Shown piece by piece: positions 24,601-53,754 of a DNA stretch of 64,000 nucleotides. Location of the stretch: positions 3,914 through 67,913 of the IMG/VR virus record IMGVR_UViG_3300046648_000141; one strand, given 5' to 3'. The notes beneath the pieces are model-generated. The model worked only from the letters and a program-made list of their open reading frames with translations. It ran no database searches and was not told where the DNA came from. The DNA comes from a virus. The position numbers and the translations under genes were made by a program. Every line of letters starts with the position of its first letter. The stretch's first letter is position 1.

Positions 24601-25593
24601 TATAACGCCATCAAGGGCCTTGGCGGCGACAATCAGGGCATCAATCGAAACCGCCGGAACGCCGAGGCCGAGCAATTCCTGTCCGGGGCACCGGCCGGCA
24701 TCCGCGAAGAGATCACCCAGCGCCAAGAGCAACTGAAATACATCCAGGAATCGTCGGCGGCGCGCGCCGAGGAAACCGCCGGCATCAACGCCGAAACCTC
24801 GATGATGAGCGCTTCCAATGCGGAGCGGGAGCGGGAGCGGTTTGTTCGCGAAGCGCTGAACGATCTTCAGAAGCAAGGCATCGTCGTCACCGACGAAATG
24901 CGCGCTTCCATCGAGGCTGAAGCCGATGCCCGCTTCAATGCGGTTTCCGCCTATGATGCGGCAACGGAAGCGGCCGACCGCCTGAAGGAGAAGCAGGAGG
25001 AGCTGAAAGCGGTTCAGGAGGAGGTGTCTTATGCCTTCCAGGGCGCGCTCAAGGGATTCATTTCCGATCTCGTTCACGGCAAGTCAGCGACCGAGGCGCT
25101 TTATAACGCCGTCTCGCAATTGGCCGATCGCCTGCTTGACATCGCCCTCGACCAAATCTTCAAGTCGCTGTTCAGCGGCGGCACCGGGGCGGCCGGCGGA
25201 CTCCTCGGTGGCTTGTTCGGCGGCTTCGCGGCCGGCGGCTACACCGGCGACGGCGGCAAGAACCAGCCGAAGGGTGTGGTTCATGGCGGCGAGTATGTCT
25301 TCTCGAAAAAGGCGACAAACCGGATCGGCGTTGCCAATCTGGAAGCGATGCACAAGGCCGCCCGGCGCGGCTACGCCCAAGGCGGATACGTCCTGCCCCG
25401 GATTGGCGGGGCCGGCGGCATGGCGCAAGCCGGAGCCGCCGCGCCGAACGTCGATGCCCGGACGACGGTCATCAATCGTTTTGACGCTCCATCGTTCCTT
25501 TCGGAAGCGCTGGCGCACCCGGACGGGGCGAAGACCATCCTCAATGTTATCCGGGCGCAACCTGCCGTATTCCGGCAGGCGTTGCAGGGCTAA
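21688..25593 (+). CDS. tape measure protein with embedded lysozyme-like domain
   Basis: QLGQALGSGVLQGDELRSI tape-measure motif; C-terminal FAAGGYTG..GVVHGGEYV. Confidence 0.92.
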   Translation: MATDLERLVVQLSADVKGYERGLARARGVTNREFNGIEKRATTLNRKLNDIGKGAGRSFAAPVAGIGSALAIAEVIKYADAWTTAENKIAAAGAVAGRAGRDLSGITDIANATRAGITETADLYAKLLRSTKDVAKNEEEVARATEIVNKAFKAGGAAAQEQAAGVLQLGQALGSGVLQGDELRSIRENAPLIAQAIADEFGVTIGKLKDLGAEGALTSDRVFKAILKAQPQIEKAFSVTNATIADSFTKIENQFIRYIGQTNEGLGASKRLTAGLNLLADNFDATADTAIAFASILGAALLGRSIGNMIASIGLGIGALKKLYSAFKALRTVGAAGLLGATSGAAGPIGAAIAVGALAAGAAITHFQLKAAEAEERSKRVAAEMEKMGITSHQAAAGVDETALSLEKISKGDAARSLRDINDELDRMRGGGLPGSLGNELGSIAEKARAQTRGLVGFFSTSAIDNTALDQIAKLADDVRDGKIAADEALKTLQAMADTEISRPVYDLNKALQVSIALFRDLQTAQKMKAETPGVRVLTLSKQLEKDTKDYAAAADQVRKAAQDALDRLNQVRDVFGNDPAFQAQVTALETVRDSLDGTAEGSNKAKAALQALADSDPGFAGLAAKLNPLLDRLGEIGAAIKTAAEGLFQLNRVDGPTKFMPREGVQAEQEARKQAQTTNFLRERTAKSAGKYEAWTVIGRTSEGRLIVVNPDEGLSTELTQTVEDPRGGFMNVPTLFSGKPVPIEEAVDKIIKNGFKDPETGRAIENFKTVDAAVKAAQARSASLSSDPKFIEADRKYTEVTDPDLAERTQKILKAAEEVGVAISEAAAKIQAESELAAEKAAKDIQKSAEASTEAAFKLIADRESFRSTPYKDNDGKLRVGFGSDTVTLSDNSIQKVVSGMTITMADATRDLDRRIEEFQRGIKSDIGAPRFSEFNDDQQAVLTSIAYNYGSLPDRIIKAIKEGTTEDIYNAIKGLGGDNQGINRNRRNAEAEQFLSGAPAGIREEITQRQEQLKYIQESSAARAEETAGINAETSMMSASNAERERERFVREALNDLQKQGIVVTDEMRASIEAEADARFNAVSAYDAATEAADRLKEKQEELKAVQEEVSYAFQGALKGFISDLVHGKSATEALYNAVSQLADRLLDIALDQIFKSLFSGGTGAAGGLLGGLFGGFAAGGYTGDGGKNQPKGVVHGGEYVFSKKATNRIGVANLEAMHKAARRGYAQGGYVLPRIGGAGGMAQAGAAAPNVDARTTVINRFDAPSFLSEALAHPDGAKTILNVIRAQPAVFRQALQG

Positions 25594-28334: not shown

Positions 28335-31300
28335 AAAATCAAAGCCCAAGATTGAGGTGACGCTCTACTACATGTCGGAGCACTTCGGCATCTGCCACGG
28401 GCCGCTTGATTTCATCTCCGAGATCAAGGTTTCTGAAAAGGTTGCCTGGACCGGCACGAAGTCCACACAGGGCGACATCACTATCAATGAACCGGAGCTG
28501 TTCGGCGGCGCCAAGAAAGAGGGCGGCGTCCAGGGCTCGGTGCATTTCCTGCCGGGCAACTATACGCAGACCATCCCGGAAACGATCGCGGCAAAGCATG
28601 GGCGCACGACGGCGACGATGCCGGCCTATCGCGGCATCGCCTCGGCGTTCTTCTATAACGGGCCGGGCGGGAGTGGGTTTTACTGGTCCGCCAACTCGCC
28701 CTACCTCCCGCCCGTCTGGATCAAGGCCGCGCGGGCGTCCGTGGCGCTGAGCGAGGAATACGCTCGCATCTGGCGCGGCGCGGAGCGCTCCACCCGGACG
28801 ATCTCCAACATCAATGTCGGCTTCACGGACACCGGCCGGAAGCTGTGGGACGTCGCCGGCTCCTATCTGGTGCACGCATCAACCGACCACACGCAGGTGA
28901 TAATCGAAGACCTCCGCACGGGCTCGGTGCGCGCCACGATCAATCTCGGCTACACGCCGGTCTGGGTTTACATCAGCGAATCCGCAAGTCAGGTCCTGGT
29001 CCTCGCGATCGACGGCACGATGCACGCCTACAACATGTTCGGCAGTGAAGTCACCTCGGTCGATACCCCGGACCCCACGCTCAGCGGGGCTGATGCAACC
29101 GCCAGCCTAACAATGGCGCCAACCGAGATTGTCGTTGACGGCGCCACCTATCTGTTCTGGATGCGCTTCAATGACGTCGTCTGTTGCACATACTCGGGCG
29201 GCGGCTGGGGCCTTAACTGGTATGGGCATCCGTGGGGTACGTTCGGAGTCGTCGGCGGCGTCATCGCCGCATCACCTGACCACCTGGTTATTCGCATGCC
29301 GTTCGGCGGCTGCTACTACGTGTTGTGGTCGCCTATCGCGCTCGACACCGTCTTTACCAATATCGATTTCCTGGGGCTCCTCGGTTGGCACGTCACGTCG
29401 TCTGACCCGATTCAGAGCGTTTCATATGTGCCGGACACCGGTACGTGGTTTTTCACAATCGGCGGCGGATTTGACGCCACTCTCAATTCCGATTGTACTG
29501 CCGTCGTTGCACAAGGCGTTACCGGCGTATCGTTTGGTACCGACACATCGCTTGCTCAGCCGGTTAAATCCCGTCGCATCCTGGACGGCTCAACCGCTGC
29601 CGCGTTTATCTCCTCGGCCGACGCCTATTTCGTTGACGTCACATCAGGCGACGTGATCGACAGCATCGCCTTTTCCGAGTTCGGTATAGCTAACGCGATT
29701 ACGCTGGACGCAGGCTGGTCCGAGGAAGAGCGCGCCTTTGTCCTCAAAACCCCCACCGCCGCCTATGTGCTCTTTCTGCCGACCAACGCCTTTGACAGTA
29801 ACCCGGCGCACATCATCTTTGATAGCCTTACGAACACCGACTGGGGCATGGGTTCGCCCACGACCGCCATTGACGTCGATAGCTTTCACAGCGCGGCAGC
29901 GGTGCTTTACGGCGAGCAGTTCGGTCTATCGATGATCTGGACGAAGCAATCCACCATCGAAAGCTTCATCGGCGAGGTTCTGGATCACATCGAGGCGGTA
30001 CTGTTCGTCAACCCGGCAACCGGTCTGCTGACCCTCAAGCTGATCCGCAATGATTACGACCCGGACGATCTGCCGATCTTCACGCCTGACAATTGCGTCG
30101 TGACCAGCTTCGGCCGGAAGCTGTGGGGTGAAACGATCAATGAGATCGTCGTCACCTTCACCAACCCGGCGAATGAGGAGGACCAGACGGTTATCGCCCA
30201 GGACCTCGCCAACATCGAGGCCCAGGGCGGCATCGTTTCCGATGGCCGCAATTACTACGGGGTGCGGGTCCGGTCGCTTGCCGCCGCCCTCGCCCAGCGT
30301 GACCTCCGGGCCGCCGCGACGCCGCTCGCCTCCTGTGACATCGACGCCAACCGTGAAGCGTGGGATTTGCTTCCCGGCGGGGTGCTGAAAATCCATTCCC
30401 CGGACGACGGCGTGGACAGCATCATCATGCGGGTTGGGCGAGTCGACTACGGCAAACCGGGTGAAGCCAGGGTCCGCGCCTCCCTCGTTGAAGACATCTT
30501 TTCGCTGCCGCTGGCCGACTACACCATCCCGCCGGACAGCGAATGGGAACCGGTGTCGGAAGAGCCGGCGCCGGCCGCTTCCACGCTCGTCTTCACCCTC
30601 CCCTATTATGTAATGATCAATGAGGTTGACGCCATCGTCCTGCTGACCGGGATTGAATATCCGGAGACCTTCGCCGGAGTGCTTGCCGCCCAGACCGGTC
30701 AAGACACGGCGGAGTTCGAGCTTTATGAAGCGGACGGCGATGACATCGGGACCAAGACCATCGTCAGCCGTGACGTGCTTGCGGCGGACATTCCGGCAGA
30801 GGTGGAAACGACGCTGCCGACCTTCCCTGACCGGACGCAAGGCGACGCGCCGACGGTCGGCGGCATGATCCTGATCGAAGGCGCGGATGATACCGAAACC
30901 GAGCTTTGCCTGATTACCGCCGGGAGCACGACCACGGGCTGGACGATCACACGCGGCGTGCTTGATACCGTCCCGCGCGCATGGCCGGCCGGCACGCCGG
31001 TCTGGTTCATCGATGAGAACCTTGAGAACACCGACGACACCATCCGATCGGAAGCGGAGACGGTCGATTACAAGGTGCTGACGCGGACTTCGCTCGGCCT
31101 GCTGGATTTCGGCGCCGCGCCGACCGTCTCCGCCACGCTTTCGGCCCGCCCGCATCTGCCGTCGCGGCCGGCTGACGTCAAGGTCGATGGCGATGACGGC
31201 TTCTCCGGCGCCGCAGTAGATGAGCGCGGCGTCGATCCCATCCCGGTCACATGGGCAAATCGAAACCGGCTGACCGAAGACACGGTTTTGCTCGCCTGGG

Positions 31301-31563
31301 ATGCCGGCGACGTGACCGCCGAGGACGGCCAGACCACTCGCATTGACATCCTCGATGCGTCTGGAACAGTGCTGACAACGCATGATGATTTGCCCGGCAC
31401 CAGCTTCGACGTTCCCGCTGCATCGTTCTCCGGAGTAGCGACCGGCAGGATCAAGGTCAGTGCCAAGCGCGATGATCTGATCTCCCTACAAGGGTACGAA
31501 ATCGCGGTGATGATCGACTCCGGCTACGGCGATGGCTACGGCTACAATTATGGAGGGGCCTGA
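28327..31563 (+). CDS. central tail fibre / baseplate hub protein with inserted domain
   Basis: LFGG.KKEGG, PAYRG, NPAHII..LT..WGMG, LKLIRNDY, RGVLDTVP. Confidence 0.85.
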   Translation: MGKKSKPKIEVTLYYMSEHFGICHGPLDFISEIKVSEKVAWTGTKSTQGDITINEPELFGGAKKEGGVQGSVHFLPGNYTQTIPETIAAKHGRTTATMPAYRGIASAFFYNGPGGSGFYWSANSPYLPPVWIKAARASVALSEEYARIWRGAERSTRTISNINVGFTDTGRKLWDVAGSYLVHASTDHTQVIIEDLRTGSVRATINLGYTPVWVYISESASQVLVLAIDGTMHAYNMFGSEVTSVDTPDPTLSGADATASLTMAPTEIVVDGATYLFWMRFNDVVCCTYSGGGWGLNWYGHPWGTFGVVGGVIAASPDHLVIRMPFGGCYYVLWSPIALDTVFTNIDFLGLLGWHVTSSDPIQSVSYVPDTGTWFFTIGGGFDATLNSDCTAVVAQGVTGVSFGTDTSLAQPVKSRRILDGSTAAAFISSADAYFVDVTSGDVIDSIAFSEFGIANAITLDAGWSEEERAFVLKTPTAAYVLFLPTNAFDSNPAHIIFDSLTNTDWGMGSPTTAIDVDSFHSAAAVLYGEQFGLSMIWTKQSTIESFIGEVLDHIEAVLFVNPATGLLTLKLIRNDYDPDDLPIFTPDNCVVTSFGRKLWGETINEIVVTFTNPANEEDQTVIAQDLANIEAQGGIVSDGRNYYGVRVRSLAAALAQRDLRAAATPLASCDIDANREAWDLLPGGVLKIHSPDDGVDSIIMRVGRVDYGKPGEARVRASLVEDIFSLPLADYTIPPDSEWEPVSEEPAPAASTLVFTLPYYVMINEVDAIVLLTGIEYPETFAGVLAAQTGQDTAEFELYEADGDDIGTKTIVSRDVLAADIPAEVETTLPTFPDRTQGDAPTVGGMILIEGADDTETELCLITAGSTTTGWTITRGVLDTVPRAWPAGTPVWFIDENLENTDDTIRSEAETVDYKVLTRTSLGLLDFGAAPTVSATLSARPHLPSRPADVKVDGDDGFSGAAVDERGVDPIPVTWANRNRLTEDTVLLAWDAGDVTAEDGQTTRIDILDASGTVLTTHDDLPGTSFDVPAASFSGVATGRIKVSAKRDDLISLQGYEIAVMIDSGYGDGYGYNYGGA

Positions 31564-32381
31564 TGGCTCAGAGAACACTTCCCGGCATTGGCCTCACCGG
31601 CTTCTGGCCGCTAGGATACGACGGCTGGAATACCGAGAATGACGTCAATCTCCGGCTCCTCTCCGCGCTTGTCCAGGCGCGGGCGATCAGCCGCACCACG
31701 GCGCTCCCCGGCTCCCCAACTGACGGTGACATTTACATCGTCCCGGACGGCGCCGGCAGTCACCCGAATGAGATTGCTATCCGTGATAACGGCGCCTGGG
31801 TCTACGTGGTGCCCGAGGAAGGCTTCAGGTTCTACGTCGATGACGACAATGAAAACATCCAGTTCGACGGCACGAATTGGATAGGATTTGCCGCCGGCCT
31901 TTCTGACGCGCCGAGTGACGGCACGATTTACGGGCGAAAGGACGCGGCCTGGGAAGCGGTGCCGAGCGGTCTCTCCGATGCTCCCAGCGATGGCACGATC
32001 TATGGGCGGAAAGACGCCGCTTGGGAGGCTGTGCCGGGCATCACCAGAATAGCCCTTTCGTTTTTCGCGGGCGGGACGCTCCTCGCCAACGAGGTGCTTT
32101 ATCGCTATCAGGCGACGGAAGGTTTCACCATTCCCGCCGGAATGACCGGCTCGCTTGGATCGTCCGGCACGGCGGCGACCGCCACACCGGCGCTATCGAT
32201 CAAGAAAAACGGCGCTTCGGTTGGCACGGCCACGTGGTCAGCAGCGGGCACCACGGCCACGCTGGCGATGGCATCGCCTACGGCTATGGTTGCGGGCGAT
32301 ATCCTGACCGTCGTCGCGCCCGCTTCGCCCGACGCCACCCTCGCCGATGTGTCCCTTACCATGCTCGGAGATTTGACATGA
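31563..32381 (+). CDS. DUF2793-like tail fibre protein with tandem foldon-like motifs
   Basis: P.SP.DGD.YIV..W....P.EG; 2x DAPSDG.IYGRKDAAW. Confidence 0.75.
   Translation: MAQRTLPGIGLTGFWPLGYDGWNTENDVNLRLLSALVQARAISRTTALPGSPTDGDIYIVPDGAGSHPNEIAIRDNGAWVYVVPEEGFRFYVDDDNENIQFDGTNWIGFAAGLSDAPSDGTIYGRKDAAWEAVPSGLSDAPSDGTIYGRKDAAWEAVPGITRIALSFFAGGTLLANEVLYRYQATEGFTIPAGMTGSLGSSGTAATATPALSIKKNGASVGTATWSAAGTTATLAMASPTAMVAGDILTVVAPASPDATLADVSLTMLGDLT
31896..32039 (+). repeat. 2 x 72-bp coding tandem repeat
   Basis: GLSDAPSDGTIYGRKDAAWEAVP identical in protein, many synonymous differences in DNA. Confidence 0.9.
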
Positions 32382-33367
32382 GTATCCTTGCCGCCGCCAC
32401 GTCCCGCGCCGACTTCTACACGGTGGGAACGGCTGCCGCCATCACGACGGCGGCCAAGATCGCGCCTTATGCCAAAGAGGGCGTTACCGTTTCGGATTTG
32501 TCAAGTTACGCGCGCCTTCTGTTTCCAGCCTTGGCCGAGGGCTGGATTCGGTTTCATGTAAACGTCAATGTCGCCATGTCAGCCAGCGTTACCGGGCAAA
32601 TGTTCCGCCTCAAGAGCGGCGAAGCCGGTCAAGCATTGTTCCAGTTGGACTTCGACGGGACCGCAGGGAATGCCCTCGAATACTGGAACGGCAGCGCGTT
32701 TGTCGAACTCGCCGGAGAGACGGTCACTTTCAGCGTCGCTCGCTTTAAGATCGATATCCAGTTCAAGATGGACGATTCGGCGGGGTACGTGCGTGTTTAT
32801 GTGAACGACACCCTTATTCACGAGATGACGGGTGACACGATATTTACGGCAGCAACGACGCTGGACACTATCGAGCTTTCATCCCCTTGCGTCGTCGGTC
32901 TTGGCAGCGGGCAATATGATTTTTCGGGGCTCATCATCGCCGACGAAGACACCCGATCAATGGTGTTCCATCAGGGGCAGGCGACGGCCAACGGAGCGGA
33001 CACGGCTTGGACAGGCGTATATACCGACGTCACGAAGCTTGATCGAAACGACAACACGTTCATCGAGTCCGGCACGGCGGCTCAACTTGAAACATACGTC
33101 ATGGATGACGTGCATACCGATCTCGCGGCTTACGTCCCGCGCGCAGTGGTTCTCTCCACCCGCACCCGGCGCGGCGCAACCGGCCCGCAGAATATGCAGG
33201 GCGTCGTCCGCCAGAGCGGCAGCGATTTCACCACCTCGAACATCTCCGGGATCAACACGGCTTACGGAACACGACAGGCGGTGATGGGCACCAACCCGGC
33301 GACCAGCGCGGCGTGGACGATAGCCGAAATCAACGCGGCTGAGTTCGGGGTTAAATCGATCGCATGA
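32378..33367 (+). CDS. beta-rich tail/receptor-binding protein (lectin-like)
   Basis: beta-sandwich-like sequence, C-terminal NPAT..AWT..EIN..EFG. Confidence 0.65.
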   Translation: MSILAAATSRADFYTVGTAAAITTAAKIAPYAKEGVTVSDLSSYARLLFPALAEGWIRFHVNVNVAMSASVTGQMFRLKSGEAGQALFQLDFDGTAGNALEYWNGSAFVELAGETVTFSVARFKIDIQFKMDDSAGYVRVYVNDTLIHEMTGDTIFTAATTLDTIELSSPCVVGLGSGQYDFSGLIIADEDTRSMVFHQGQATANGADTAWTGVYTDVTKLDRNDNTFIESGTAAQLETYVMDDVHTDLAAYVPRAVVLSTRTRRGATGPQNMQGVVRQSGSDFTTSNISGINTAYGTRQAVMGTNPATSAAWTIAEINAAEFGVKSIA

Positions 33368-34293
33368 CCTCTCCATCGCCTTTCACGTTTGTAGGCCTCA
33401 GCAGCGCGGCAGAGGTCGCAAGCGGCAACCTGACACTGGTCACGACCGGCGTCACGATCCAGACCGGCGATCTGGTCGTTGCCTGCATCGCCGCTCGCGG
33501 CAACGCGGCATTCTCGGCTCCAGATGCCAACTGGACGCTTGTTGAGCAGCAAAGCAGCGGCAACACCGATCTGACCGCCGCTACGGCCATCGCTTCCGGC
33601 GCGATGTTCGTCTGCCAATCATGGCCTGCCAGCGCCCCAAGCCTAGTCTTTACCCGAACCGCTGGCGATGTCGGGCGCGGCGTGCTGATGGTCTATCGCG
33701 GGCAGAAGGCTTCCGGCTCGCTGAACGTGCATAGTTCGAATACGCCCGGAGCGGCTACCACCACGCCGACGACCACGTCGATCTCCACGACGACCGAGGA
33801 AGAACTGATCGTCGCTATGGTCGCGGGCGCAGACAATGTGTCTATAGGACCATTCGTCGCGACGGACCCGTCCGTAGCAACCGGGGCGGTCACGACGGAT
33901 GATCTCGGGTGGGAACAGCAGTGGCTTTTGCGACATGCCAGCAATACCACTACCGGGGCCGACACTTCCCTCGGTGTAGCCGACGCCACAAAAACAGCCA
34001 CGGGTGCTACCGGTGCGGTCCAGTGCACTATGTCGGTTGCGTCCCGGCACGTGATGATCGCGGCGTCGTTCAAGAGTTCAGCCCAAGACCGCAGCACCGA
34101 GCAAGTCTCGAAGGCGTCCCGGTATGACGTGATGAAGCCGAATGACGGCGCGGTCAGCGTGACCAAGCTGTCGCGCTATGACGTCCTCATGGCTGTCGGC
34201 GTGGTGTCCACTACCAAATTCTCCCGCTACGACATCCTCGTTCCGGGCGAGAGCACGGTCAAACGGCGCGTCCAGAACGTCAACTATCTCTAA
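33364..34293 (+). CDS. Thr/Ala-rich virion protein
   Basis: GDLVVA.IA; C-terminal 3x K.SRYD(V/I) repeats. Confidence 0.65.
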   Translation: MTSPSPFTFVGLSSAAEVASGNLTLVTTGVTIQTGDLVVACIAARGNAAFSAPDANWTLVEQQSSGNTDLTAATAIASGAMFVCQSWPASAPSLVFTRTAGDVGRGVLMVYRGQKASGSLNVHSSNTPGAATTTPTTTSISTTTEEELIVAMVAGADNVSIGPFVATDPSVATGAVTTDDLGWEQQWLLRHASNTTTGADTSLGVADATKTATGATGAVQCTMSVASRHVMIAASFKSSAQDRSTEQVSKASRYDVMKPNDGAVSVTKLSRYDVLMAVGVVSTTKFSRYDILVPGESTVKRRVQNVNYL

Positions 34294-34319
34294 TCCCCGA
34301 ACATCAGGAGCGCCGGACG

Positions 34320-35180
34320 ATGGCGGCCAAGAATTTTGATGACTGCCTCGCGAGGGTGCTTGTCCACGAGGGCGGCTATGTCGATGACCCCAGGGACCCC
34401 GGCGGGGCGACAAATCAGGGCATCACCCAGCGGACTTATGACGCCTACCGGCGGAGCAAGAGGCAGTCCACCCGCGCCGTGCGGTTGATGACGCCGCCGG
34501 AGCGCAATGAGATTTACCGGCGGCAATACTGGGACGCGGTGCAGGGCGACACGTTGCCGGACGGACTCGATTCCGTTCTGTTTGACGGCGCCGTGCATAG
34601 CGGCCCGAAGCAGTCGATCAAATGGCTACAGCGAGCGCTCGGCAACTCCTACCACGGGACGATTGATGGAGTGATCGGCCTCGCCACCTTCGCGGCGCTG
34701 GAGTCGACCACGAACTATTCCCAGCTTATCGATCGGATTTGCGATCGGCGGCTGGCCTTTCTCCGGACACTCGACGGCTGGGCGCACTTCGGCAAAGGCT
34801 GGAAGCGGCGCGTTGACAATGTCCGGGCGGTCGCCAAGGCCGACGTTCTGGATATCAAGAATCCGTCCACGGTCCTTGCCGTCCCGTTGCCCGGCGGCGA
34901 GGCAAAGGCGAGGATCGAGGACGCGCGCCGGGCACCATCGAAAGCGCCCGGAGATGCGGCAACCGGCGGCGGGCTCGGCGGCCTCGGGATTGCCGGCGTC
35001 CTACAAGGGCTTCAAGAGCAACTGACACCATACAGCATCGCCGGCGGCTGGATTGGAAAGCTCGTGATTATCCTGGCCGTCAGCGGCGCGCTATTCACCA
35101 TCGGCGGCATCGCCTACCGCTGGTATGCGAAGCGGCAGCAAGCCAAGATCGCCGACGCGCTCGACGCGGTGCCGGCATGA
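34320..35180 (+). CDS. endolysin, GH108 + PG-binding domain, hydrophobic C-terminus
   Basis: HEGGYVDDPRDPGGATNQGIT, FD.AV.SG, WLQRALG..DG.IG..T, FGKGW..R. Confidence 0.93.
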   Translation: MAAKNFDDCLARVLVHEGGYVDDPRDPGGATNQGITQRTYDAYRRSKRQSTRAVRLMTPPERNEIYRRQYWDAVQGDTLPDGLDSVLFDGAVHSGPKQSIKWLQRALGNSYHGTIDGVIGLATFAALESTTNYSQLIDRICDRRLAFLRTLDGWAHFGKGWKRRVDNVRAVAKADVLDIKNPSTVLAVPLPGGEAKARIEDARRAPSKAPGDAATGGGLGGLGIAGVLQGLQEQLTPYSIAGGWIGKLVIILAVSGALFTIGGIAYRWYAKRQQAKIADALDAVPA

Positions 35181-35443
35181 TCGCCTACCTTGCAAGTCCG
35201 ATCGGCAAGATTGCCGCCGCCATCATCGTCGCCGCCGTGCTTGTCGGCGCCGGCTACATCAAGGGCCGGGAAGACGGCAAGCTCCGGCAAATGAAGGACA
35301 CAGTCGAGGCGGTTCAAAATCGCGGGGTGATCAACAATGAAGTTAGCAAACTTCCTGATTATAGCTTGTGCATCCGTCTTGGCGGCCTGCCAGACGACTG
35401 CGCTCAATTGCGCGGGATGGACGCCACCCCCCAAGGCAAATAA
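35177..35443 (+). CDS. i-spanin (Rz-like)
   Basis: N-terminal TM, follows endolysin, overlaps lipoprotein ORF. Confidence 0.65.
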   Translation: MIAYLASPIGKIAAAIIVAAVLVGAGYIKGREDGKLRQMKDTVEAVQNRGVINNEVSKLPDYSLCIRLGGLPDDCAQLRGMDATPQGK

Positions 35444-35534
35444 CCCGGTGCGGCTGGTGCAGGAGGAACAAGGTCTTTCCCGCTGGATCATCGCAACCGA
35501 TCAGTTCGGAAAGAAACAAGGTTGCTGGAAATAG
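35337..35534 (+). CDS. o-spanin (Rz1-like lipoprotein)
   Basis: lipobox LAA-C, Pro-rich, overlapping reading frame. Confidence 0.7.
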   Translation: MKLANFLIIACASVLAACQTTALNCAGWTPPPKANNPVRLVQEEQGLSRWIIATDQFGKKQGCWK

Positions 35535-35545
35535 GAGAAATTCCG

Positions 35546-35749
35546 ATGCCGCTTTTGCAGATGCTTTTGGTGATCTTGGTCATCTCGCTTGTCGCCGCCC
35601 TTGTTGCCGGCGTGCTTGTCTTCCTGATCCGGAGCGCGCCCTTCCTGCCTGAACCTTATAAGGCGTGGGCAGTATGGGCGGTCATCGCGATCGTCGCGCT
35701 GGTCGCGCTGATCAAGATTTTGCCGGCAGTGGGAGTGCCCACCTATTGA
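35546..35749 (+). CDS. two-TM membrane protein (holin candidate)
   Basis: two hydrophobic helices separated by PFLPEPYK. Confidence 0.55.
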   Translation: MPLLQMLLVILVISLVAALVAGVLVFLIRSAPFLPEPYKAWAVWAVIAIVALVALIKILPAVGVPTY

Positions 35750-36213
35750 ACGTGCGCGCCGCTCTTGCCATTGGGTGGCGCTGGTTTGCCCACGCATCCG
35801 GCGTCATCCTCATCGCCGGGGCAATCTCCTTCGGCGTCCTGCATCTCTTCTCGATCAATGGCCCCGTCGTTACCGTGACCGAGGGGCCGGGCTACATTTC
35901 CAGCGTCGTGCCCTACCGAGGGGTCCTGACCTACAAGATTTCGACCGAGCGCCACGCCTCCTGTCCCGGCCGGGTGATCGTCAGTTTTACCTTCCAGGGC
36001 GGGGGTCCGCCGGTTACCGTGCTCTTGAGCCGGCCGATCCTTTCCACCGAGATCAAGCAGACTGACGACGCCACTATTTATTTTCAACTGCCGGAGAACG
36101 TTTACCCCGGCCGCTGGTTATTCCGGTCAGTTGTGGACAGCACATGTCCGACCTATTCGCGCCAGGATGTAACCGCACAATTCCCGTTCGAGGTGACCCA
36201 CAATGTGGACTGA
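35746..36213 (+). CDS. membrane-anchored protein with beta-rich exported domain
   Basis: N-terminal TM; two Cys (SCPG, TCP). Confidence 0.6.
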   Translation: MNVRAALAIGWRWFAHASGVILIAGAISFGVLHLFSINGPVVTVTEGPGYISSVVPYRGVLTYKISTERHASCPGRVIVSFTFQGGGPPVTVLLSRPILSTEIKQTDDATIYFQLPENVYPGRWLFRSVVDSTCPTYSRQDVTAQFPFEVTHNVD

Positions 36214-36577
36214 CATCCTCAATTTCTTCGGCGCCGAACGCTATTCCCAGCACTCCATCTGCCTGACCAATGATCCGGTCATGATCTTCCTCTATGTGCT
36301 GTCTGATCTTTCCACCTTCGCGTCTTATTTCGCGATCGGCCTTTCACTGATTATCATAGCGCGCGTTCCGCCCATCCGCGTGAGGCCAACGATGCGGCTC
36401 TTGTTCGGGTCTTTCATCTTCCTATGCGGTCTTTCCCATCTCACAAGCGTAATTACCCTCTTCACCGGCGTCTATCGTCTCGACATCCTTGTCAGAGCCG
36501 CGATGGCCGCCGTCTCGGTCATGACCGCAATCGCCGTTGTAAACGACTATTTCCGTCAACAGCCGAAGAGCACGTGA
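36203..36577 (+). CDS. stand-alone ethylene-receptor-like (ETR1-type) transmembrane domain
   Basis: SD35..Y42FAI..F68GSFI72FLC75GLSH79..VS105..T108A, same spacing as ETR1 D25/Y32/I62/C65/H69. Confidence 0.78.
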   Translation: MWTDILNFFGAERYSQHSICLTNDPVMIFLYVLSDLSTFASYFAIGLSLIIIARVPPIRVRPTMRLLFGSFIFLCGLSHLTSVITLFTGVYRLDILVRAAMAAVSVMTAIAVVNDYFRQQPKST

Positions 36578-36578
36578 G

Positions 36579-36782
36579 ATGGATGCGGAGGCGTTCTTGA
36601 CCGTCACGGCAACATTCCTCATCGCCATCAGTTGCGGCGTCATCACGTATCGGGTTTCCATCCGGCAAGCGAAACAGGAGATCGACGCGGCCTTCCAGCA
36701 GCACATTGAGCGGATGCACCACGAGCATCGCCAGTTCGTTGAAGAGGTTGCGGAGACGGTCGAGCAAGAACCGAAGGACTGA
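36579..36782 (+). CDS. single-TM protein
   Basis: N-terminal TM, His/Glu-rich tail. Confidence 0.55.
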   Translation: MDAEAFLTVTATFLIAISCGVITYRVSIRQAKQEIDAAFQQHIERMHHEHRQFVEEVAETVEQEPKD

Positions 36783-36785
36783 GAT

Positions 36786-37112
36786 GTGGACCTCGCACCT
36801 TTTCTCACGTTCGGCGGAGCCGTCCTGACGGCTGTGTTCACGGTCATCGGTACTATCTATGTCGCCCGCTCCCGGACGAAGACCGATCTTGGCGCTTCCA
36901 TCACCAGCGGCTTCCGGGAATTGACCGATCAGCTCCAGGAGGAGCGCAGCCAGTTGAGCGAGATCATCAAGCGGCAGCGGGAGGAGTTGGCGGACGTCGA
37001 AAAGGTGACGGACAGGCAAGAGCACACAATTCGGCGAATGCGCCGCCGTGTGGCCCTCCTGGAAAACAAACTGGCAAAGGCCGGGCTAGATATACCGCCC
37101 GGCGATCAATAG
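36786..37112 (+). CDS. single-TM coiled-coil protein (holin/antiholin candidate)
   Basis: N-terminal TM plus long heptad region; end of lysis operon. Confidence 0.55.
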   Translation: MDLAPFLTFGGAVLTAVFTVIGTIYVARSRTKTDLGASITSGFRELTDQLQEERSQLSEIIKRQREELADVEKVTDRQEHTIRRMRRRVALLENKLAKAGLDIPPGDQ

Positions 37113-37118
37113 CGTTCC

Positions 37119-37457
37119 TTAACGAAATTCGGGCGGCTTGCGGACATTGTCCGGAGCGTCCGCGAACATCGGCGCGATCTGAGCCGGGGTGTAGCCGGCG
37201 AGGCCGCACCCGATCGCCGTGAGATTGAATGTCAGCTCCGGGTGATTGCGCGCGAACTCCAGGAAGCGCTCGACATGCATCCGAATGTTATCCAGGTGCA
37301 GCGTCCGAATATAATGGTCCTTCGTCGGAATGCCGTAAGACCTCCCTTGAAGGCCCTCACCCCGCCCGTAAATCGCCCCGTGATTTTTGAGGGCAAACAA
37401 CGCCGCGCCCTTCCCGTGCCGGCCGGCGAGATTGCTCCCGAAGACGAAGATATTCAT
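37119..37457 (-). CDS. macrodomain-like phage protein (A1S_2505-like)
   Basis: IFVFGSNLAGRHGKGAA..A, SYGIPTK, T.IGCGLAG. Confidence 0.75.
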   Translation of the reverse strand: MNIFVFGSNLAGRHGKGAALFALKNHGAIYGRGEGLQGRSYGIPTKDHYIRTLHLDNIRMHVERFLEFARNHPELTFNLTAIGCGLAGYTPAQIAPMFADAPDNVRKPPEFR

Positions 37458-37720
37458 AGCGGGTCTATCCCTTCTCTGACGGCGGCCCAAATCCACGCTG
37501 AGATCGCCGCCCGGCTCGTCAGACCGTCGATCGATCTGCGCAGCTCCTCAACCTTTTCACCTTCCCAGAGCGGCCCGGCAATCCACTGCCGGAGATAGGC
37601 GCGCATCGCCGCGACGTGCTCCGGCGACATCTCCCCGCCGCTCAGATACGCCTCGACGGCCGGCCGCAATACGCCGCTCGTTTCATTCATCCAATAGGCG
37701 GGCTGGTGAATGATCTTCAA
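37454..37720 (-). CDS. hypothetical protein
   Basis: YWMNETSGVLRPAVEAYL..RAYLRQWI; AGGAG RBS before TTG. Confidence 0.6.
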   Translation of the reverse strand: MKIIHQPAYWMNETSGVLRPAVEAYLSGGEMSPEHVAAMRAYLRQWIAGPLWEGEKVEELRRSIDGLTSRAAISAWIWAAVREGIDPL

Positions 37721-37789
37721 TCTCGATACTCCTGATGTTCCCTCCCGGCGCGGGCTGGAACTCCTGACCAACGGCGCCCGCGCCCACCT

Positions 37790-37818
37790 GCCCCGCCCTC
37801 ACCGGCGGGGCTTTTTTT
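37790..37818 (+). terminator. Rho-independent terminator
   Basis: GCCCCGCC-CTCACC-GGCGGGGC-TTTTTTT. Confidence 0.8.
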
Positions 37819-37851
37819 ATGCCTTGGCGCGGCCTCGCTAGCCAGTATGCG

Positions 37852-37888
37852 CTTGCAATAAATCGCTTTTTGGCCTAAATTTAGGACA
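37852..37888 (+). promoter_or_regulatory. RpoD-like promoter with near-palindromic operator
   Basis: CTTGCA-N17-CTAAAT; TGGCCTAA-AT-TTAGGACA. Confidence 0.6.
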
Positions 37889-37934
37889 TAGACGGAAGGG
37901 GATGGCCCCGCCGCAAAACAGGGAGAAGACCCTA

Positions 37935-38156
37935 ATGACCGACATGCTTTCTCAGGAAGAATTTGCCACTCTGGACGATACCGCCTTCTGCAACTGGTGG
38001 CAGGCTTGGTACGCCCAGAAGCTGGACGGACCTAACCCTTGCTCTACGGAAGAACTCGCCGCCCATACCGCAACTGTCCGGGAAGTGTTCCGGCAACGGT
38101 GGGGGGCCAAGGGGGGCGACTACATGCTCTTCCGGCTCGTCACCATGTTTAGCTGA
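37935..38156 (+). CDS. small Trp-rich protein (moron), paralogue of 345-518
   Basis: own promoter and terminator; SQEEF..D.AFC.WW..W.A. Confidence 0.7.
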   Translation: MTDMLSQEEFATLDDTAFCNWWQAWYAQKLDGPNPCSTEELAAHTATVREVFRQRWGAKGGDYMLFRLVTMFS

Positions 38157-38171
38157 GAACGGCAGGAAGCC

Positions 38172-38203
38172 GCCCCCGCCCCTCACCGGGTGGGGGCTTT
38201 TTT
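38172..38203 (+). terminator. Rho-independent terminator
   Basis: GCCCCCGCCC-CTCACC-GGGTGGGGGC-TTTTTT. Confidence 0.8.
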
Positions 38204-38207
38204 GTTT

Positions 38208-38380
38208 TTGGAAACTAAAACCTTTGGAAACCCTTGGAAACAAAGCATGAAGGTTTTCCAAAAATAATCGTTATTTTACGGTTACTTGCACCGGCCCTCC
38301 GGGCCTACCAATCTTCTTGTTTTTATTGAGGTTTTTACCGGGTTTTCCAAATTGATTTGGAAAACCTTTTTGGAAAACCT
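38208..38380. other. attP: tRNA-3'-end-like core flanked by arm repeats
   Basis: core CCCTCCGGGCCTACCA at 38295-38310; seven TTGGAAA(A)C copies in both orientations; AT-rich; next to int. Confidence 0.8.
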
Positions 38381-38387
38381 TCCGGGC

Positions 38388-38418
38388 AAAAAAAGGGGCG
38401 GCCTAGCCGCCCCGTTTT
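38388..38418 (-). terminator. terminator of int
   Basis: GGGGCGG/CCGCCCC hairpin with A7 on the plus strand. Confidence 0.7.
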
Positions 38419-39629
38419 CACTCTCCGATGATTCGCAATCGCGGCGGTTTGCGTTGTGCTCCGAATCGTTCCTCCAAGAGCTTTGCGGCGGCGGTGGTGG
38501 TTTTCATTTTATCCAGACCCTTCGCATAGAGAACCACTTGCTGCATGGTCGTGTGACCAAGCATATCCTTCTGCATCTGGAACGAAGCGCCGCTGACGGC
38601 AACCATCTGGGCGTAGGATTTCCGCAAACCATGCAGGGTATAGCCGGCCGGGATGTCGGCTTGCTTGCACCAATGCGCCATCATGCCGGTCAGGCTCTTT
38701 TCCGAGAACGGCTTACCATAGGCCGTCTTGAGAACCGTGCCCTCATCCCGCGTGAGCGGCTCCAGCGCATCGGCTAGCATCGTCGTCAGCGGCCGGAACT
38801 GTTCCATGTCCTCGTCATTCTGGACGCGCTTCCGCTGCTCAAAATAAAAGCCGGTCACCAGCTCCCCGTCGATCTCGACGGTAATGAGCTGGGGCCAGCT
38901 CAGGTGCGCGATGTCTCCGCGCCGGTTGCCCAACCATTTTGCGAGGGCGTAGCAGGTGCGCGCCGCCGTCCCGATCGCATGTCTTGCTTCAAATTTTAGT
39001 TGGATTGGTTCCGGCCATGATTTCCAGCCGACATAACCGCCGTTCTTGCCGGCCCCACGCTTCCATTTGACAAGCTCGGTCGGATCGTCGTCGCGCATCT
39101 TCTTTCGCCGGGCGATGTAGAAAATTTTCCGCAGCATTACTTTCATGTGCCACGGCTTCGATGGTGCGAGTGCCGCCCAGCGGTCCCGGAGCTTTTCAAG
39201 ATGTTCAAAGGTCATTTGGCTGACCGGAACGTCTCCCCATTTCAGCGGCTTATTGGGATTGATGGGCATGCCCAAAAATTCCTTCGCCATTCGCTCATTC
39301 TTGCTCTGGCTTTGCGCGTCCAGGTCCTTCCACTCCGCCGTCGCAAGAACCAGCTTCCACGCGTGCCGGAAGGTCTGCGGCAACGACGCGGTGGGTATCT
39401 CAATCACATCAGCTTTCGCCACCGCCGGCCGGGCCTGAACGATCGCCTCATAGGCGTCATCAAATGCGCCAGTGTACGGTTCGAGGCCCATCGCGATCAG
39501 TTGCGGCTTGAGACCGGTTTTGCGCACCCGGTAACGGGTTTTCCCGTGCCGATCCTCCCAAACGCCAATTCCCGGATACTTCGCCTTGAGCGCGGCGGGC
39601 GTTTTCCCTTTGGCCTTTTGCTTAGACAT
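38418..39629 (-). CDS. int: tyrosine integrase
   Basis: GNRRGD, LHGLRK, LGH, Y catalytic signature; N-terminal DRHGK.RYR arm-binding domain. Confidence 0.93.
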   Translation of the reverse strand: MSKQKAKGKTPAALKAKYPGIGVWEDRHGKTRYRVRKTGLKPQLIAMGLEPYTGAFDDAYEAIVQARPAVAKADVIEIPTASLPQTFRHAWKLVLATAEWKDLDAQSQSKNERMAKEFLGMPINPNKPLKWGDVPVSQMTFEHLEKLRDRWAALAPSKPWHMKVMLRKIFYIARRKKMRDDDPTELVKWKRGAGKNGGYVGWKSWPEPIQLKFEARHAIGTAARTCYALAKWLGNRRGDIAHLSWPQLITVEIDGELVTGFYFEQRKRVQNDEDMEQFRPLTTMLADALEPLTRDEGTVLKTAYGKPFSEKSLTGMMAHWCKQADIPAGYTLHGLRKSYAQMVAVSGASFQMQKDMLGHTTMQQVVLYAKGLDKMKTTTAAAKLLEERFGAQRKPPRLRIIGE

Positions 39630-39819
39630 TGGCGGAGCCCTTCTTTGCGTCCATAACGATCTTCAGCATGAGGGGATAGGAGAAGCCGCGCCCAGCCTCT
39701 ATTCCTTCATAGGTGCGCCACGGGATGCCGATGAGCGCCGCCGCTTCCTTCATGGTCAGGTCCCCGCGCCATGTTCGCAGGGCCTTTGCAAGTTCTTCCT
39801 TCTCTGATGGTGTTTGCAT
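39622..39819 (-). CDS. XRE-family HTH protein
   Basis: LRTWRG.LT.KEAA.LIGIP.RTYEGIE.GR. Confidence 0.85.
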   Translation of the reverse strand: MQTPSEKEELAKALRTWRGDLTMKEAAALIGIPWRTYEGIEAGRGFSYPLMLKIVMDAKKGSANV

Positions 39820-39890
39820 TGCATTGCCTCCCCTTTCGGTAAAGAGACAATACCGCACGGTGCGGAATTACGCAATATGCGGGGTGGCGT

Positions 39891-40154
39891 TCAGTCATCC
39901 CTAAGTGACTCCTCCAGCGCCTTTTGAATGTCCGTTTTCACTTCCTGATGCGGCAGTGTCGAAAAGGCCATGTCGATCTCGACGCGATCCCAAACCGTCC
40001 GCATATCCACTTGCCGAGGCTTCGGCATCCGCCGATCGCGGACCATTTCATCAAATTTGCCGGTGCTCACTCCGACATACCGTGCCGCTTCCTCGCGGCT
40101 GAGACCGCGCGGTGGGTAGCTTAATGGATCGGGTTTCAAAGTCATTGCCGTCAT
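39891..40154 (-). CDS. excisionase / AlpA-like DNA-binding protein
   Basis: PRGLSREEAARYVGVS..FD.MV....MP.P....WD. Confidence 0.8.
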   Translation of the reverse strand: MTAMTLKPDPLSYPPRGLSREEAARYVGVSTGKFDEMVRDRRMPKPRQVDMRTVWDRVEIDMAFSTLPHQEVKTDIQKALEESLRDD

Positions 40155-40179
40155 CCCGGTTACACCTGAACTGCATTTC

Positions 40180-40441
40180 ACCTTGCTTCGCCGTGCCCTG
40201 CTTTGCCCCGCCCCGCCCAGCCGTGCCTAACCGTGCCACGTCATCGCCGTTCGAAAATTCACAAACCTCAATCCTTGCTTTGCCTAGCCCTGCCCCGCCT
40301 TGCCCGGCGCTGCCAGGCCCCGCGTCGCCCAGCCGAGCCTAGCCTTGCCTCGCCTTGCCCGGCCGTTAGAAATTCTCAAACTTCAATCCTTGCTTCGCCG
40401 TGCCGGGCCTTTCCCGGCCTGACCTTGCCGTGCCGTGCCAG
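40180..40441 (-). repeat. GGY-NN pentamer array A (3 segments, 2 conserved separators); candidate ncRNA
   Basis: plus strand (RCC-NN)n with near-strict 5-nt period; separators AAATTC(A/T)CAAAC(C/T)TCAATCCTTGC 115 nt apart. Confidence 0.85.
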
Positions 40442-40448
40442 GGGAATC

Positions 40449-40712
40449 TCACTCGCGGCTTTGGAGCACATCAGCCACGAAGGCGGCGCACTCGTCGTGC
40501 AGCATGTCCAAGGCGATCTGAATAGGGTGGCCCAGCTCTTCCGTCATCGTCAGCAAACGCTGAGCGGCGACGCATCCGGAATAAAAACTGCGACGGATTT
40601 CCTGGTACTGGACGGAGTCGGCCGCCAGCCCGTCGTCGTAACACGCCTTGATGTAGCTCTGGTAAAGCTGCTCAATGAAGTGCGTCCGCTCCGGATTTTC
40701 ATTGTCGTTCAT
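40449..40712 (-). CDS. hypothetical protein
   Basis: VQ..E.RR.FY.G motif; coupled ORF. Confidence 0.6.
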   Translation of the reverse strand: MNDNENPERTHFIEQLYQSYIKACYDDGLAADSVQYQEIRRSFYSGCVAAQRLLTMTEELGHPIQIALDMLHDECAAFVADVLQSRE

Positions 40713-49837: not shown

Positions 49838-50269
49838 ATGACCCATCCTGACCATGATGAAGGGAGCAAGTGGAATGATGCCGATCGGGGCCGCGTGGCG
49901 GCGATGCTCAAGCAAGGTATGTCGCGCCGTCAGATCGCCCTCAAGATGGGCATCACCCGCAACACTTGCGCAGGCCGGATTCATCGCGACGATGATTTGC
50001 GCGCCGTCGCGCCGGGCCGCCTCCCGCCCAGTCCGAAGAGGGTCGCGCCAGTGATGCCTCCCCGAGACATCCCCCCGCCGGTCATGCGCCGGGTGCCGTT
50101 GAAAGACGTCGGCCAGGACGAGTGCACTTGGCCGGTCACTACGGTCCCAGATCGCAAGGTGATCGGCGCCTTTCTCTTCTGCGGAGCCGAGACGGAACCG
50201 TTGGCGATGTGGTGCCCCTATCACGGGCAGCTTGGATATGCGCCACCTCGGGAGCGTCGTCATGGGTGA
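49838..50269 (+). CDS. GcrA-like cell-cycle regulator
   Basis: W.D....G.S..QIA..G.TRN...G.IHR and L.D....C.WP...FCG....C.YH. Confidence 0.85.
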   Translation: MTHPDHDEGSKWNDADRGRVAAMLKQGMSRRQIALKMGITRNTCAGRIHRDDDLRAVAPGRLPPSPKRVAPVMPPRDIPPPVMRRVPLKDVGQDECTWPVTTVPDRKVIGAFLFCGAETEPLAMWCPYHGQLGYAPPRERRHG

Positions 50270-53179: not shown

Positions 53180-53754
53180 TTATCCTTGGCCTCGATCAGT
53201 CGATAACCCGGACAGGCTGGGCGCTTTATCGCTTCCCCGGCGATGAGCGGCACATGAGGTGCGGCTCGTTCTCCTGTTCGGATGAGGCCGACGCCGACGC
53301 CAAGTGTGAGCGCTTCGCCCGTGAGATTAAGCGGCTGGTCGGACCCCAGGAAACGCGGCCGGACTTCATTTGCTGGGAGAAGGCCAAGCGGCAAATCTCC
53401 GCCTACCCCAAGAAGCCGAACGCCGATCTGCTCGGCCTGGGCGGCCAGGACGTTTGGACGGTCAACGCCGATCAGCTCCTCCTCCCCGAAATTCAGGGCA
53501 TCATCCGGGCGGCGACCGTCTTCTATCGCGTGCCGCACGAGTCGGTATCGCCGGCGACATGGCGGGCTGCGATTTACGGCAAGGGCGGCGGCAAACTATC
53601 GCGCGTCGATGCCAAGGCGCGGGCCAAGGAATACTGCCAGGCCCTCGGTATCAAGTTCAGCGGCGACGATCAGGCGGAAGCCGCGTGCATCGCCCGGTGG
53701 GCCGCGACGTGCTCTATCGCCTTCCGGATGCTTATGGCGAGGGCGGCGGCATGA
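53176..53754 (+). CDS. RuvC-like Holliday junction resolvase
   Basis: ILGLDQSITRTGW, E, V.P.TWR, DDQAEA. Confidence 0.8.
   Translation: MIILGLDQSITRTGWALYRFPGDERHMRCGSFSCSDEADADAKCERFAREIKRLVGPQETRPDFICWEKAKRQISAYPKKPNADLLGLGGQDVWTVNADQLLLPEIQGIIRAATVFYRVPHESVSPATWRAAIYGKGGGKLSRVDAKARAKEYCQALGIKFSGDDQAEAACIARWAATCSIAFRMLMARAAA

Follow-up and report, generated by a model that had tools for sequence, protein, structure and literature searches.

We report that a 124-residue protein encoded by a tailed temperate phage is a homolog of the ethylene-binding domain of ETR1-type receptors, and that its gene is embedded in the lysis operon of that phage. The gene (hereafter the ETR1_N gene, 36203–36577, plus strand) was found in a 64,000-nucleotide stretch of viral DNA, referred to below as the window, which covers bases 3914–67913 of the IMG/VR record IMGVR_UViG_3300046648_000141 (67,913 bp, CheckV completeness 100%). 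To our knowledge, all other known occurrences of the ethylene-binding domain are as the input part of receptors with several domains. What is new here is a diversified, exclusively stand-alone ETR1_N clade that travels with phage lysis genes. We put at about even the chances that the protein serves the lysis module as a membrane component that binds copper, be it a holin, an antiholin or a timing regulator. A preliminary description of the window, made from the nucleotide sequence without database searches, had proposed a stand-alone ethylene-receptor-type copper-binding domain following the lysis genes, and its interpretation is partly supported by the results presented below.

A stand-alone homolog of the ethylene-binding domain

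There is no longer open frame at the locus, and a GAGG motif is located 7–12 nt upstream of the ATG. The preliminary description had the boundaries, the length and the residue numbering (H17, C20, D35, Y42, I45, G46, F68, I72, C75, H79, R98, S105 and T108) entirely right. It had also proposed a comparison with receptor profiles, and the outcome was well above the cut-off: the protein matched the Pfam family PF25487 (ETR1_N) with 68.3 bits (E = 7.2e-19; cut-off, 27 bits), residues 27–113 being aligned to positions 2–88 of the 97-position profile. A profile search of the whole record reproduced the match (68.2 bits). The likeness to the ethylene-binding domain is thus far above chance and represents genuine homology, and the operon order described below agrees with the proposed placement after the lysis genes. 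NCBIfam, PHROG and PADLOC contained no family for the protein.

Kyte-Doolittle hydropathy revealed three hydrophobic helices (35–53, 66–84 and 95–113). The AlphaFold2 model, computed from 70 aligned sequences, has three long helices (25–52, 62–88 and 91–118) and two short N-terminal ones, with a mean predicted local distance difference test (pLDDT) value of 88.7 and a predicted template modeling score of 0.78. The three-transmembrane architecture suggested at the outset was confirmed by both approaches, as was the lack of a fused GAF, PAS or kinase output: the frame ends six residues past the third helix, no output domain is present and a single nucleotide separates the stop from the following gene. 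Among five phage copies, the ratio of nonsynonymous to synonymous substitution rates was 0.05–0.23 in all 10 pairs (based on the first 116 codons only, with the synonymous rate near saturation in most pairs). This is a real gene under purifying selection.

A profile derived from alignment A1 produced a single chance match (E = 0.31) against PDB sequences, and a fold search with the model detected generic helical bundles only (Z ≤ 8.8). The search of BFVD returned one match and no holin. The matched protein, A0A8E4UZR7 (viral, 289 residues, unnamed; E = 4.7e-4, TMq 0.72), has the same three-helix fold over 103 columns at 26% identity, possibly as a viral version of the domain in fused form.

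The first loop contains four Arg residues, which suggests that it is cytoplasmic and that the N-terminus, bearing H17 and C20, is periplasmic, as in the receptors. Most likely, then, this is an inner-membrane protein in an N-out/C-in orientation. C20 is the single N-terminal Cys, a feature in common with cyanobacterial receptors, and sits in the predicted outer N-terminal segment. For the cyanobacterial forms, PMC6682694 suggests that this Cys may make a dimer disulfide. C20 may play the same part in the phage protein, which would probably pair through the faces used by the receptor domain. A 124-residue version free of soluble domains would also be a handy minimal target for solving the structure of the ethylene/copper site, which has yet to be determined.

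The stand-alone clade and its ethylene- and copper-site positions

Relatives of the phage protein include both short and fused forms. A word-index search yielded 97 proteins of 68–163 residues, 89 of them with PF25487 (as counted in the result table). Named short relatives come from Rhizobium ruizarguesonis (89% identity), Mesorhizobium, Bradyrhizobium, Methylobacterium and Methylorubrum. The same type of search directed at longer relatives found two kinase-fused proteins (E about 1e-7) among 2337 candidates. An exhaustive search detected 4017 proteins at E ≤ 0.001, of which the best 30 or so are short and are followed by sensors of 300–1270 residues. Ten long matches were scanned for domains. 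Nine of them (378–1269 residues) combine PF25487, at 110–142 bits, with HisKA/HATPase_c, PAS or GGDEF, while the tenth (223 residues) has PF25487 alone (54.5 bits). The fused kinases and diguanylate cyclases share 33–45% identity with the phage protein over residues 4–113, the H..C motif included. They differ from it in matching the profile more strongly than its 68 bits (the nine scanned) and in continuing beyond the third helix, where the phage protein, a member of a separate all-short clade, ends.

That clade was defined by phylogenetic analysis of 141 sequences, comprising 64 short proteins (the window protein and those of 11 other loci among them) and the N-termini of 77 long ones. Because the 150 best matches of the window protein itself supplied the sequences, the sample is biased towards it. 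The window protein falls in a group of 45 rows, all short (about 120–175 residues) and none fused; the Shimodaira–Hasegawa-like approximate likelihood ratio support is 87, on a branch that is not starred. A second, small phage group of stand-alone proteins (loci L009 and L011–L013) falls among the fused forms. In this second group, the Pro36 position is kept and three of the five rows have His at the Asp25 position; its ETR1_N genes are followed by other multi-helix and coiled-coil membrane proteins. A further scan of viral sequences with patterns of subfamily 2 recovered the same six contigs and no new ones.

We counted residues at functional positions in three sets: 26 close stand-alone homologs, the 45-row clade and the 77 fused sensors. 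For the ethylene-binding residues we provisionally take D25, Y32, I35, P36, I62, C65 and H69 of ETR1, a list that comes from the preliminary description and was reportedly established by Wang et al. (2006). The Lys conserved in the fused sensors presumably corresponds to Lys91 of ETR1. The phage protein keeps six of the seven ethylene-binding positions, the exception being G46 at the Pro36 position, and all three positions of the Asp/Cys/His copper site (D35, C75 and H79). The spacing of the Asp, Tyr, Ile, Ile, Cys and His positions is that of ETR1-type receptors, and all six lie at an offset of +10, as described initially. The substitutions noted at the time, Gly for Pro36 and Arg for Lys91, also stand, but the offset of R98 from the corresponding Lys in the fused sensors is +7, the helix 2-helix 3 loop of the phage protein being shorter by three residues.

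C75 (Cys65) and H79 (His69) are invariant in 26 of the 26 close homologs; they occur in 40 and 37 of the 45 clade rows, respectively, and in all 77 fused sensors. The preliminary description had named a lack of conservation of these two residues among phage homologs as an outcome that would refute its proposal, and this outcome is not what the counts show. Two further residues invariant in the close homologs are Y42 (Tyr32), present in 39 clade rows and all 77 sensors, and I72 (Ile62), present in 35 and 76. I45 (Ile35) is conserved in at least 90% of the close homologs, in 38 clade rows and in 74 sensors. The upstream motif, H17 and C20, is also invariant in the close set. In the clade, H17 is found in 35 rows and C20 in 41; in the fused sensors, the counts are 76 and 77 of 77, in agreement with the early suggestion that the motif resembles the bacterial form.

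The remaining positions are markedly different between the clade and the fused sensors. D35 (Asp25) is kept in at least 90% of the close homologs, yet only 23 of the 45 clade rows have Asp (Asn in 9, His in 5, Tyr in 3, Glu in 2) versus 72 of the 77 sensors. At the Pro36 position, at least 90% of the close homologs have Gly (G46), and no clade row has Pro (Gly in 34, Ala in 6, Ser in 5), compared with 74 of the sensors. R98 (Lys91) is not among the conserved positions of the close set; a basic residue is found here in 18 clade rows versus 74 sensors (Lys in 72, Arg in 2). Judging by these alignments, the stand-alone clade has kept the metal ligands fairly well, has lost Pro wholly, and has lost Asp and Lys in about half or more of its members.

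The consequences of such substitutions have been studied in ETR1. According to PMC11819568 and PMC6682694, seven residues are regarded as required for ethylene binding. PMC10266040 names Asp25, Cys65 and His69 as the copper determinants and reports that copper binding in vitro is mostly abolished in D25N, D25A, D25E and D25Q, that ethylene binding of D25A, D25N and D25Q is undetectable in yeast, and that K91R retains 63% of ethylene binding but confers hyposensitivity; the Asp25-Lys91 pair is described as coupling copper and ethylene binding to signal output. The ethylene sensing first proposed for the phage protein keeps the support of the six positions retained here, but is weakened by its clade, in which, out of 45 rows, none has Pro, 23 have Asp and 18 are basic where ETR1 has Lys91.

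In summary of the comparison with known receptors, the phage protein is like the domain of ETR1/ERS1 (Arabidopsis), SynEtr1 (Synechocystis) and AzoEtr1 (Azospirillum) in its profile match and in its three membrane helices of equal lengths. It differs from ETR1-type receptors in the lack of GAF, PAS, kinase, GGDEF or any other output, in having Gly for Pro36, Arg for Lys91 and a helix 2-helix 3 loop three residues shorter, in being encoded in a lysis operon and in belonging to a clade relaxed at the Asp25 and Lys91 positions. Since there is no output domain and the clade has lost positions that fused receptors keep for binding ethylene with high affinity and for relaying the signal, the protein is no hormone receptor of the usual kind. 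We found no paper on a phage-borne ethylene-receptor-type or ETR1_N protein, or on its link to lysis or holins, just as the preliminary description knew of none. Where PMC7700396 and PMC6324907 mention viruses, the subject is the kinases that giant viruses of algae encode.

The lysis operon and the possible role of the protein

The ETR1_N gene is one of eight genes (34320–37112) that overlap or are 1–3 nt apart from the start of the endolysin gene to the end of hol108. No promoter-like site was found in 31500–40500, and no strong terminator inside the lysis block; strong terminators are located past it, at 37790, 38172 and 38395–38413. The ETR1_N gene is therefore predicted to be co-transcribed, and probably co-translated, with the lysis genes. 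Its GC content at third codon positions (GC3) is 0.71, similar to that of its neighbors. Directly upstream lies orf155 (35752–36213, plus strand), the stop of which overlaps the ETR1_N start by 11 nt. It encodes about 155 residues, an N-terminal helix and a beta-sandwich, with an uncertain start (the longest frame opens at 35665). Downstream are tm67 (36579–36782, plus strand; 67 residues, one N-terminal helix, weak family matches only), starting 1 nt past the ETR1_N stop, and hol108 (36786–37112, plus strand), which codes for a membrane-tethered coiled coil of 108 residues matching PHROG 2658 (‘hol-like chemotaxis’, E = 1.4e-08).

This arrangement recurs. Our set of loci encoding a stand-alone protein numbers 17: the window itself, 13 from other viral sequences and 3 from genomes. 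An endolysin is encoded within about 2 kb in nine of them, and these enzymes belong to three families: GH108 in the window, L002–L005 and L014, a PF11860 muramidase in L006, and GH19 in L007 and L015. In addition, L008 has a Phage_lysozyme2 protein just downstream. The same membrane genes thus occur beside different lysis enzymes, a mosaic pattern typical of lysis cassettes. An orf155 homolog is found directly upstream of the ETR1_N gene in eight loci (the window, L002–L005, L007, L008 and L015), with identity down to 27–40%. A hol108-type protein is encoded downstream in nine loci by tblastn (the window, L002–L007, L016 and L017), and alignment A4 reveals the same build in L008 and L015, making hol108 the most constant neighbor. 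The tm67 gene is conserved downstream in L002–L005 and L017. The copy in L007 has Tyr at the Asp position, yet its neighbors are unchanged. The survey of neighborhoods suggested in the preliminary description thus places orf155 upstream in 8 of the 17 loci and an endolysin nearby in 9. The Atlas clusters of both the ETR1_N protein and orf155 are most common in Uroviricota.

Two of the genomic loci are of interest in their own right. In Methylobacterium oryzisoli (L016, 7843–8736), the orf155 homolog is cut to its last 50 codons beside a RecT-like gene, and the ETR1_N (135 residues) and hol108-type (114 residues) genes are whole. In Rhizobium mulingense (L017, 7310–8141), the ETR1_N gene has been reduced to its final 47 codons, which abut an integrase fragment, with intact tm67 and hol108 homologs downstream; this is a decayed prophage end.

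Four observations lead us to favor a role in lysis: the coupling to lysis genes, the same two partners beside unrelated lysis enzymes, a clade without an output domain, and the relaxed ethylene and relay positions. If so, the protein would be made from the phage late transcript along with the lysis genes and would hold Cu(I) at C75/H79 together with D35. It would act as the hole-forming protein, as its antagonist or as a timing regulator, with the anchored, immunoglobulin (Ig)-like orf155 and the tethered coiled-coil hol108 as partners. The early proposal that it tunes lysis through neighboring membrane proteins fits the gene order. A small membrane protein encoded in a gap-free operon with an endolysin and spanins also corresponds to what is expected of the holin class. 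Class I holins such as lambda S105 are about 100 residues long and have three helices in an N-out/C-in orientation. The phage protein resembles them in size, number of helices, predicted topology and place in a lysis operon; it differs in showing no likeness to a holin family in the Pfam and PHROG searches, in the conserved polar Asp, Cys and His inside its helices and in a C-terminal tail that is only weakly basic. Should the lysis role be true, lysis proteins would gain a new type, one in which a metal site is buried, and this might be how copper, redox state or a plant gas times host death in the rhizosphere.

Several observations weigh against such a role. Seven of the 17 loci show no endolysin. 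Among them, L009/L010, L012 and L013 lie close to where their contigs break off, L016 and L017 are what is left of decayed prophages, and L011 is ambiguous. The protein matched none of the known holin, antiholin and releasin families (Pfam and PHROG, E ≤ 10); since holins are very diverse, this does not exclude the class. PF11351, PF16083 and PF16084 were found in none of five complete phage records, and the blank for PF11351 says little as this family was silent in the controls too. There are also other holin candidates in the cassette, namely tm75 (two helices), orf155, tm67 and hol108. The T-type holin of T4, for instance, is built of one helix and a periplasmic domain with two Cys, as is orf155. 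Each of them, like the ETR1_N protein, is a candidate lesion-former. Next, the lysis block closes the late operon, with about 1.3 kb between it and the integrase side, and lysogenic-conversion genes of temperate phages also sit at that end. Finally, the Cys and His strongly kept in helix 2 are not needed by a plain holin, so that a ligand- or metal-dependent role is possible. A specific version of such a role, in which lysis of the root-associated host is gated by a signal read in the membrane, appears improbable to us. Here, the copper site would bind ethylene or another copper-seeking gas or olefin, or sense copper or redox state, and thereby hold or release a holin complex of which orf155 and hol108 are also part, so that a plant hormone would set the time of the burst.

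The neighboring genes bear on two further explanations. Superinfection exclusion or defense, by which the coupled membrane proteins would keep out the DNA of other phages or abort their infections, is distinctly unlikely in our view. Small membrane proteins without a known family that prophages encode close to the attachment site often have such functions, and all five genes here lack a known one. Nevertheless, PADLOC was blank for the ETR1_N protein, orf155 and tm75, and gave only weak coiled-coil or sub-threshold matches for tm67 (gop, E = 0.023) and hol108 (HEC-07, E = 5e-05 over the coiled coil), while the spanin coupling and the recurrence beside endolysins point to lysis.

Even less probable, we believe, is a function in copper handling alone, as a Cu(I) buffer or chaperone in the membrane that is unrelated to ethylene or lysis and perhaps works with the two-Cys orf155. 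The conserved Asp/Cys/His site, which corresponds to the copper determinants named for ETR1 in PMC10266040, and the periplasmic H..C motif would suit it. So would the two Cys of orf155, C71 and C132, which are invariant in alignment A2, but this pair equally fits a plain Ig-type disulfide. Moreover, Cys or His is missing in five to eight of the 45 clade rows, and no copper-resistance or transport gene was identified near the ETR1_N gene by Pfam and PHROG assignments of its neighbors.

The two partners were characterized further. Homologs of orf155 are 154–171 residues long and none has a Pfam domain; the protein itself had no match in Pfam, PHROG or PADLOC, and Foldseek returned nothing at E ≤ 0.001. 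Its AlphaFold2 model (pLDDT 67.7) matched only generic Ig-like sandwiches in a fold search (Z ≤ 8.6). We considered it as a LydB-type holin antagonist (Atlas score 0.86) and rejected this assignment, as PF16084 was absent in all 14 members (E ≤ 10) and in five phage records (E ≤ 1). A predicted complex of the ETR1_N protein and orf155 scored 0.01 against a mark of 0.32; controls were not run, and the value is evidence neither way. A releasin identity of hol108 was likewise rejected, as the families listed by a Pfam scan of eight members (E ≤ 10) were all generic coiled-coil ones.

Upstream of these genes, the cassette starts with the endolysin (34320–35180, plus strand), which contains GH108 (PF05838, E = 4.9e-27) and PG_binding_3 (PF09374, E = 1.4e-07) domains and matches PHROG 315 (E = 1.2e-48). 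It has a C-terminal hydrophobic helix (residues 248–266 by hydropathy) and no N-terminal signal. The releasin gp25 of phage Mu frees a membrane-bound endolysin. It belongs to DUF2730 and is described in PMC9239132 as a membrane-tethered cytoplasmic protein. The tethered coiled-coil hol108, encoded in one operon with the GH108 enzyme, recalls the Mu arrangement: hol108 has a comparable N-terminal helix and coiled coil, and the window endolysin also has a membrane helix. The differences are that DUF2730 was not among the 14 families listed for hol108 of the window or the 25 shown of 86 in that scan, and that the endolysin helix is C-terminal here instead of being an N-terminal signal anchor.

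The endolysin stop overlaps (ATGA) the start of a probable i-spanin gene (35177–35443, plus strand), which encodes 88 residues with an N-terminal helix and matches PHROG 1026 (Rz-like spanin, E = 3.5e-4) and PHROG 12535 (E = 4.6e-12). A probable o-spanin (35337–35534, plus strand), a 65-residue lipoprotein with an L-A-A-C lipobox, overlaps the i-spanin end in another frame; it had no Pfam or PHROG match and was recognized from its translation. Next comes tm75 (35522–35749, plus strand), which encodes 75 residues with two hydrophobic helices and no match in Pfam, PHROG or PADLOC. This gene is present in the window, L002 and L004, and missing from the corresponding place, just past the o-spanin gene, in L003 and L005 (both CheckV 100% complete), where the remaining membrane proteins of the cassette are the endolysin tail, the spanins, orf155, ETR1_N, tm67 and hol108. 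The three copies of tm75 (window 35522–35749, L002 7320–7547 and L004 3280–3477) are 97–100% identical, compared with 65–95% for the flanking proteins, and the gene behaves like a small mobile or recently swapped one.

The source phage and its hosts

The tailed temperate nature of the phage is evident from its gene set, which includes the large terminase, a protease-major head fusion, portal, tape measure, a tail protein and integrase (PHROG, E from 3e-109 to 3e-15). At least half of the sampled words of its DNA were present, as near-identical sequence, in 13 of the 24 listed sequencing runs, all labeled as rhizosphere or root metagenomes. These runs are all dated 2023, so they possibly derive from one sampling campaign, and one of them may be the source itself. 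The habitat of the phage is plant-associated, as had been supposed initially. None of the listed runs holding phage DNA words is an RNA run. Searches of 50,697 deposited phage records with the 124-residue protein (tblastn) and with window positions 30000–40000 (megablast) gave no match; near records may be missing from this set.

The preliminary description had further suggested that the protein might interfere with a receptor of the host. Among 151 genomes sampled from the genus of Rhizobium mulingense, PF25487 was detected in one, and this sole case is the truncated phage remnant beside an integrase fragment. Bosea eneae has a stand-alone copy only, while Methylobacterium oryzisoli, in addition to its stand-alone copy, has a fused 552-residue ETR1_N frame elsewhere in the genome. 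Without a resident ETR1_N receptor in the Rhizobium sample, interference is unsupported, and we rejected it as a general mechanism. At the level of the order, 48 of 401 genomes have PF25487, and 48 of the 51 places lie in open frames of 228–982 residues. Stand-alone copies are therefore rare in host chromosomes and are a phage trait.

The same data are relevant to a lysogenic-conversion sensor, by which the prophage would give its root host an ethylene or copper module in the membrane, relaying via orf155, tm67 and hol108 and changing behavior near plants. We regard this explanation as rather unlikely. It would be well served by the rhizosphere and root habitat, by hosts of the Rhizobium sample that lack an ETR1_N protein and would gain a new capacity, by the position of the block near the integrase end of the late region, and by the retention in this phage of six of the seven ethylene-binding positions and the whole Asp/Cys/His site. 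The Arg at the Lys91 position is compatible with it as well, given the 63% of ethylene binding retained by ETR1 K91R (as stated in PMC10266040). There is also a precedent in AzoEtr1, a bacterial ethylene receptor that alters root colonization, according to PMC11819568. On the other hand, the gene has no output domain, promoter-like site or terminator of its own, and its GC3 is like that of its neighbors. In the clade, the Pro36 position is never Pro, and about half of the members or more have lost the Asp25 and Lys91 equivalents, with the gene order unchanged, and the same trio stands beside lysis enzymes in L007 and L008 with no integrase near. If ethylene were bound in lysogens, phages would spread hormone perception among rhizobia that have no receptor of their own.

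Other features of the window are mentioned briefly. The PHROG scan assigned 11745–13715 to a major head protein fused to a head maturation protease region, and 21688–25593 to a tape measure protein with an endolysin-like segment (residues 810–1095). A 125-residue protein of PHROG 2072 (37119–37496, minus strand; E = 1.3e-44, function unknown) is encoded convergently to the late-operon end across a gap of 6 nt. In the early region, there are genes for a DNA methyltransferase and a protein similar to phosphoadenosine phosphosulfate reductase (50232–51521 and 53370–54572).

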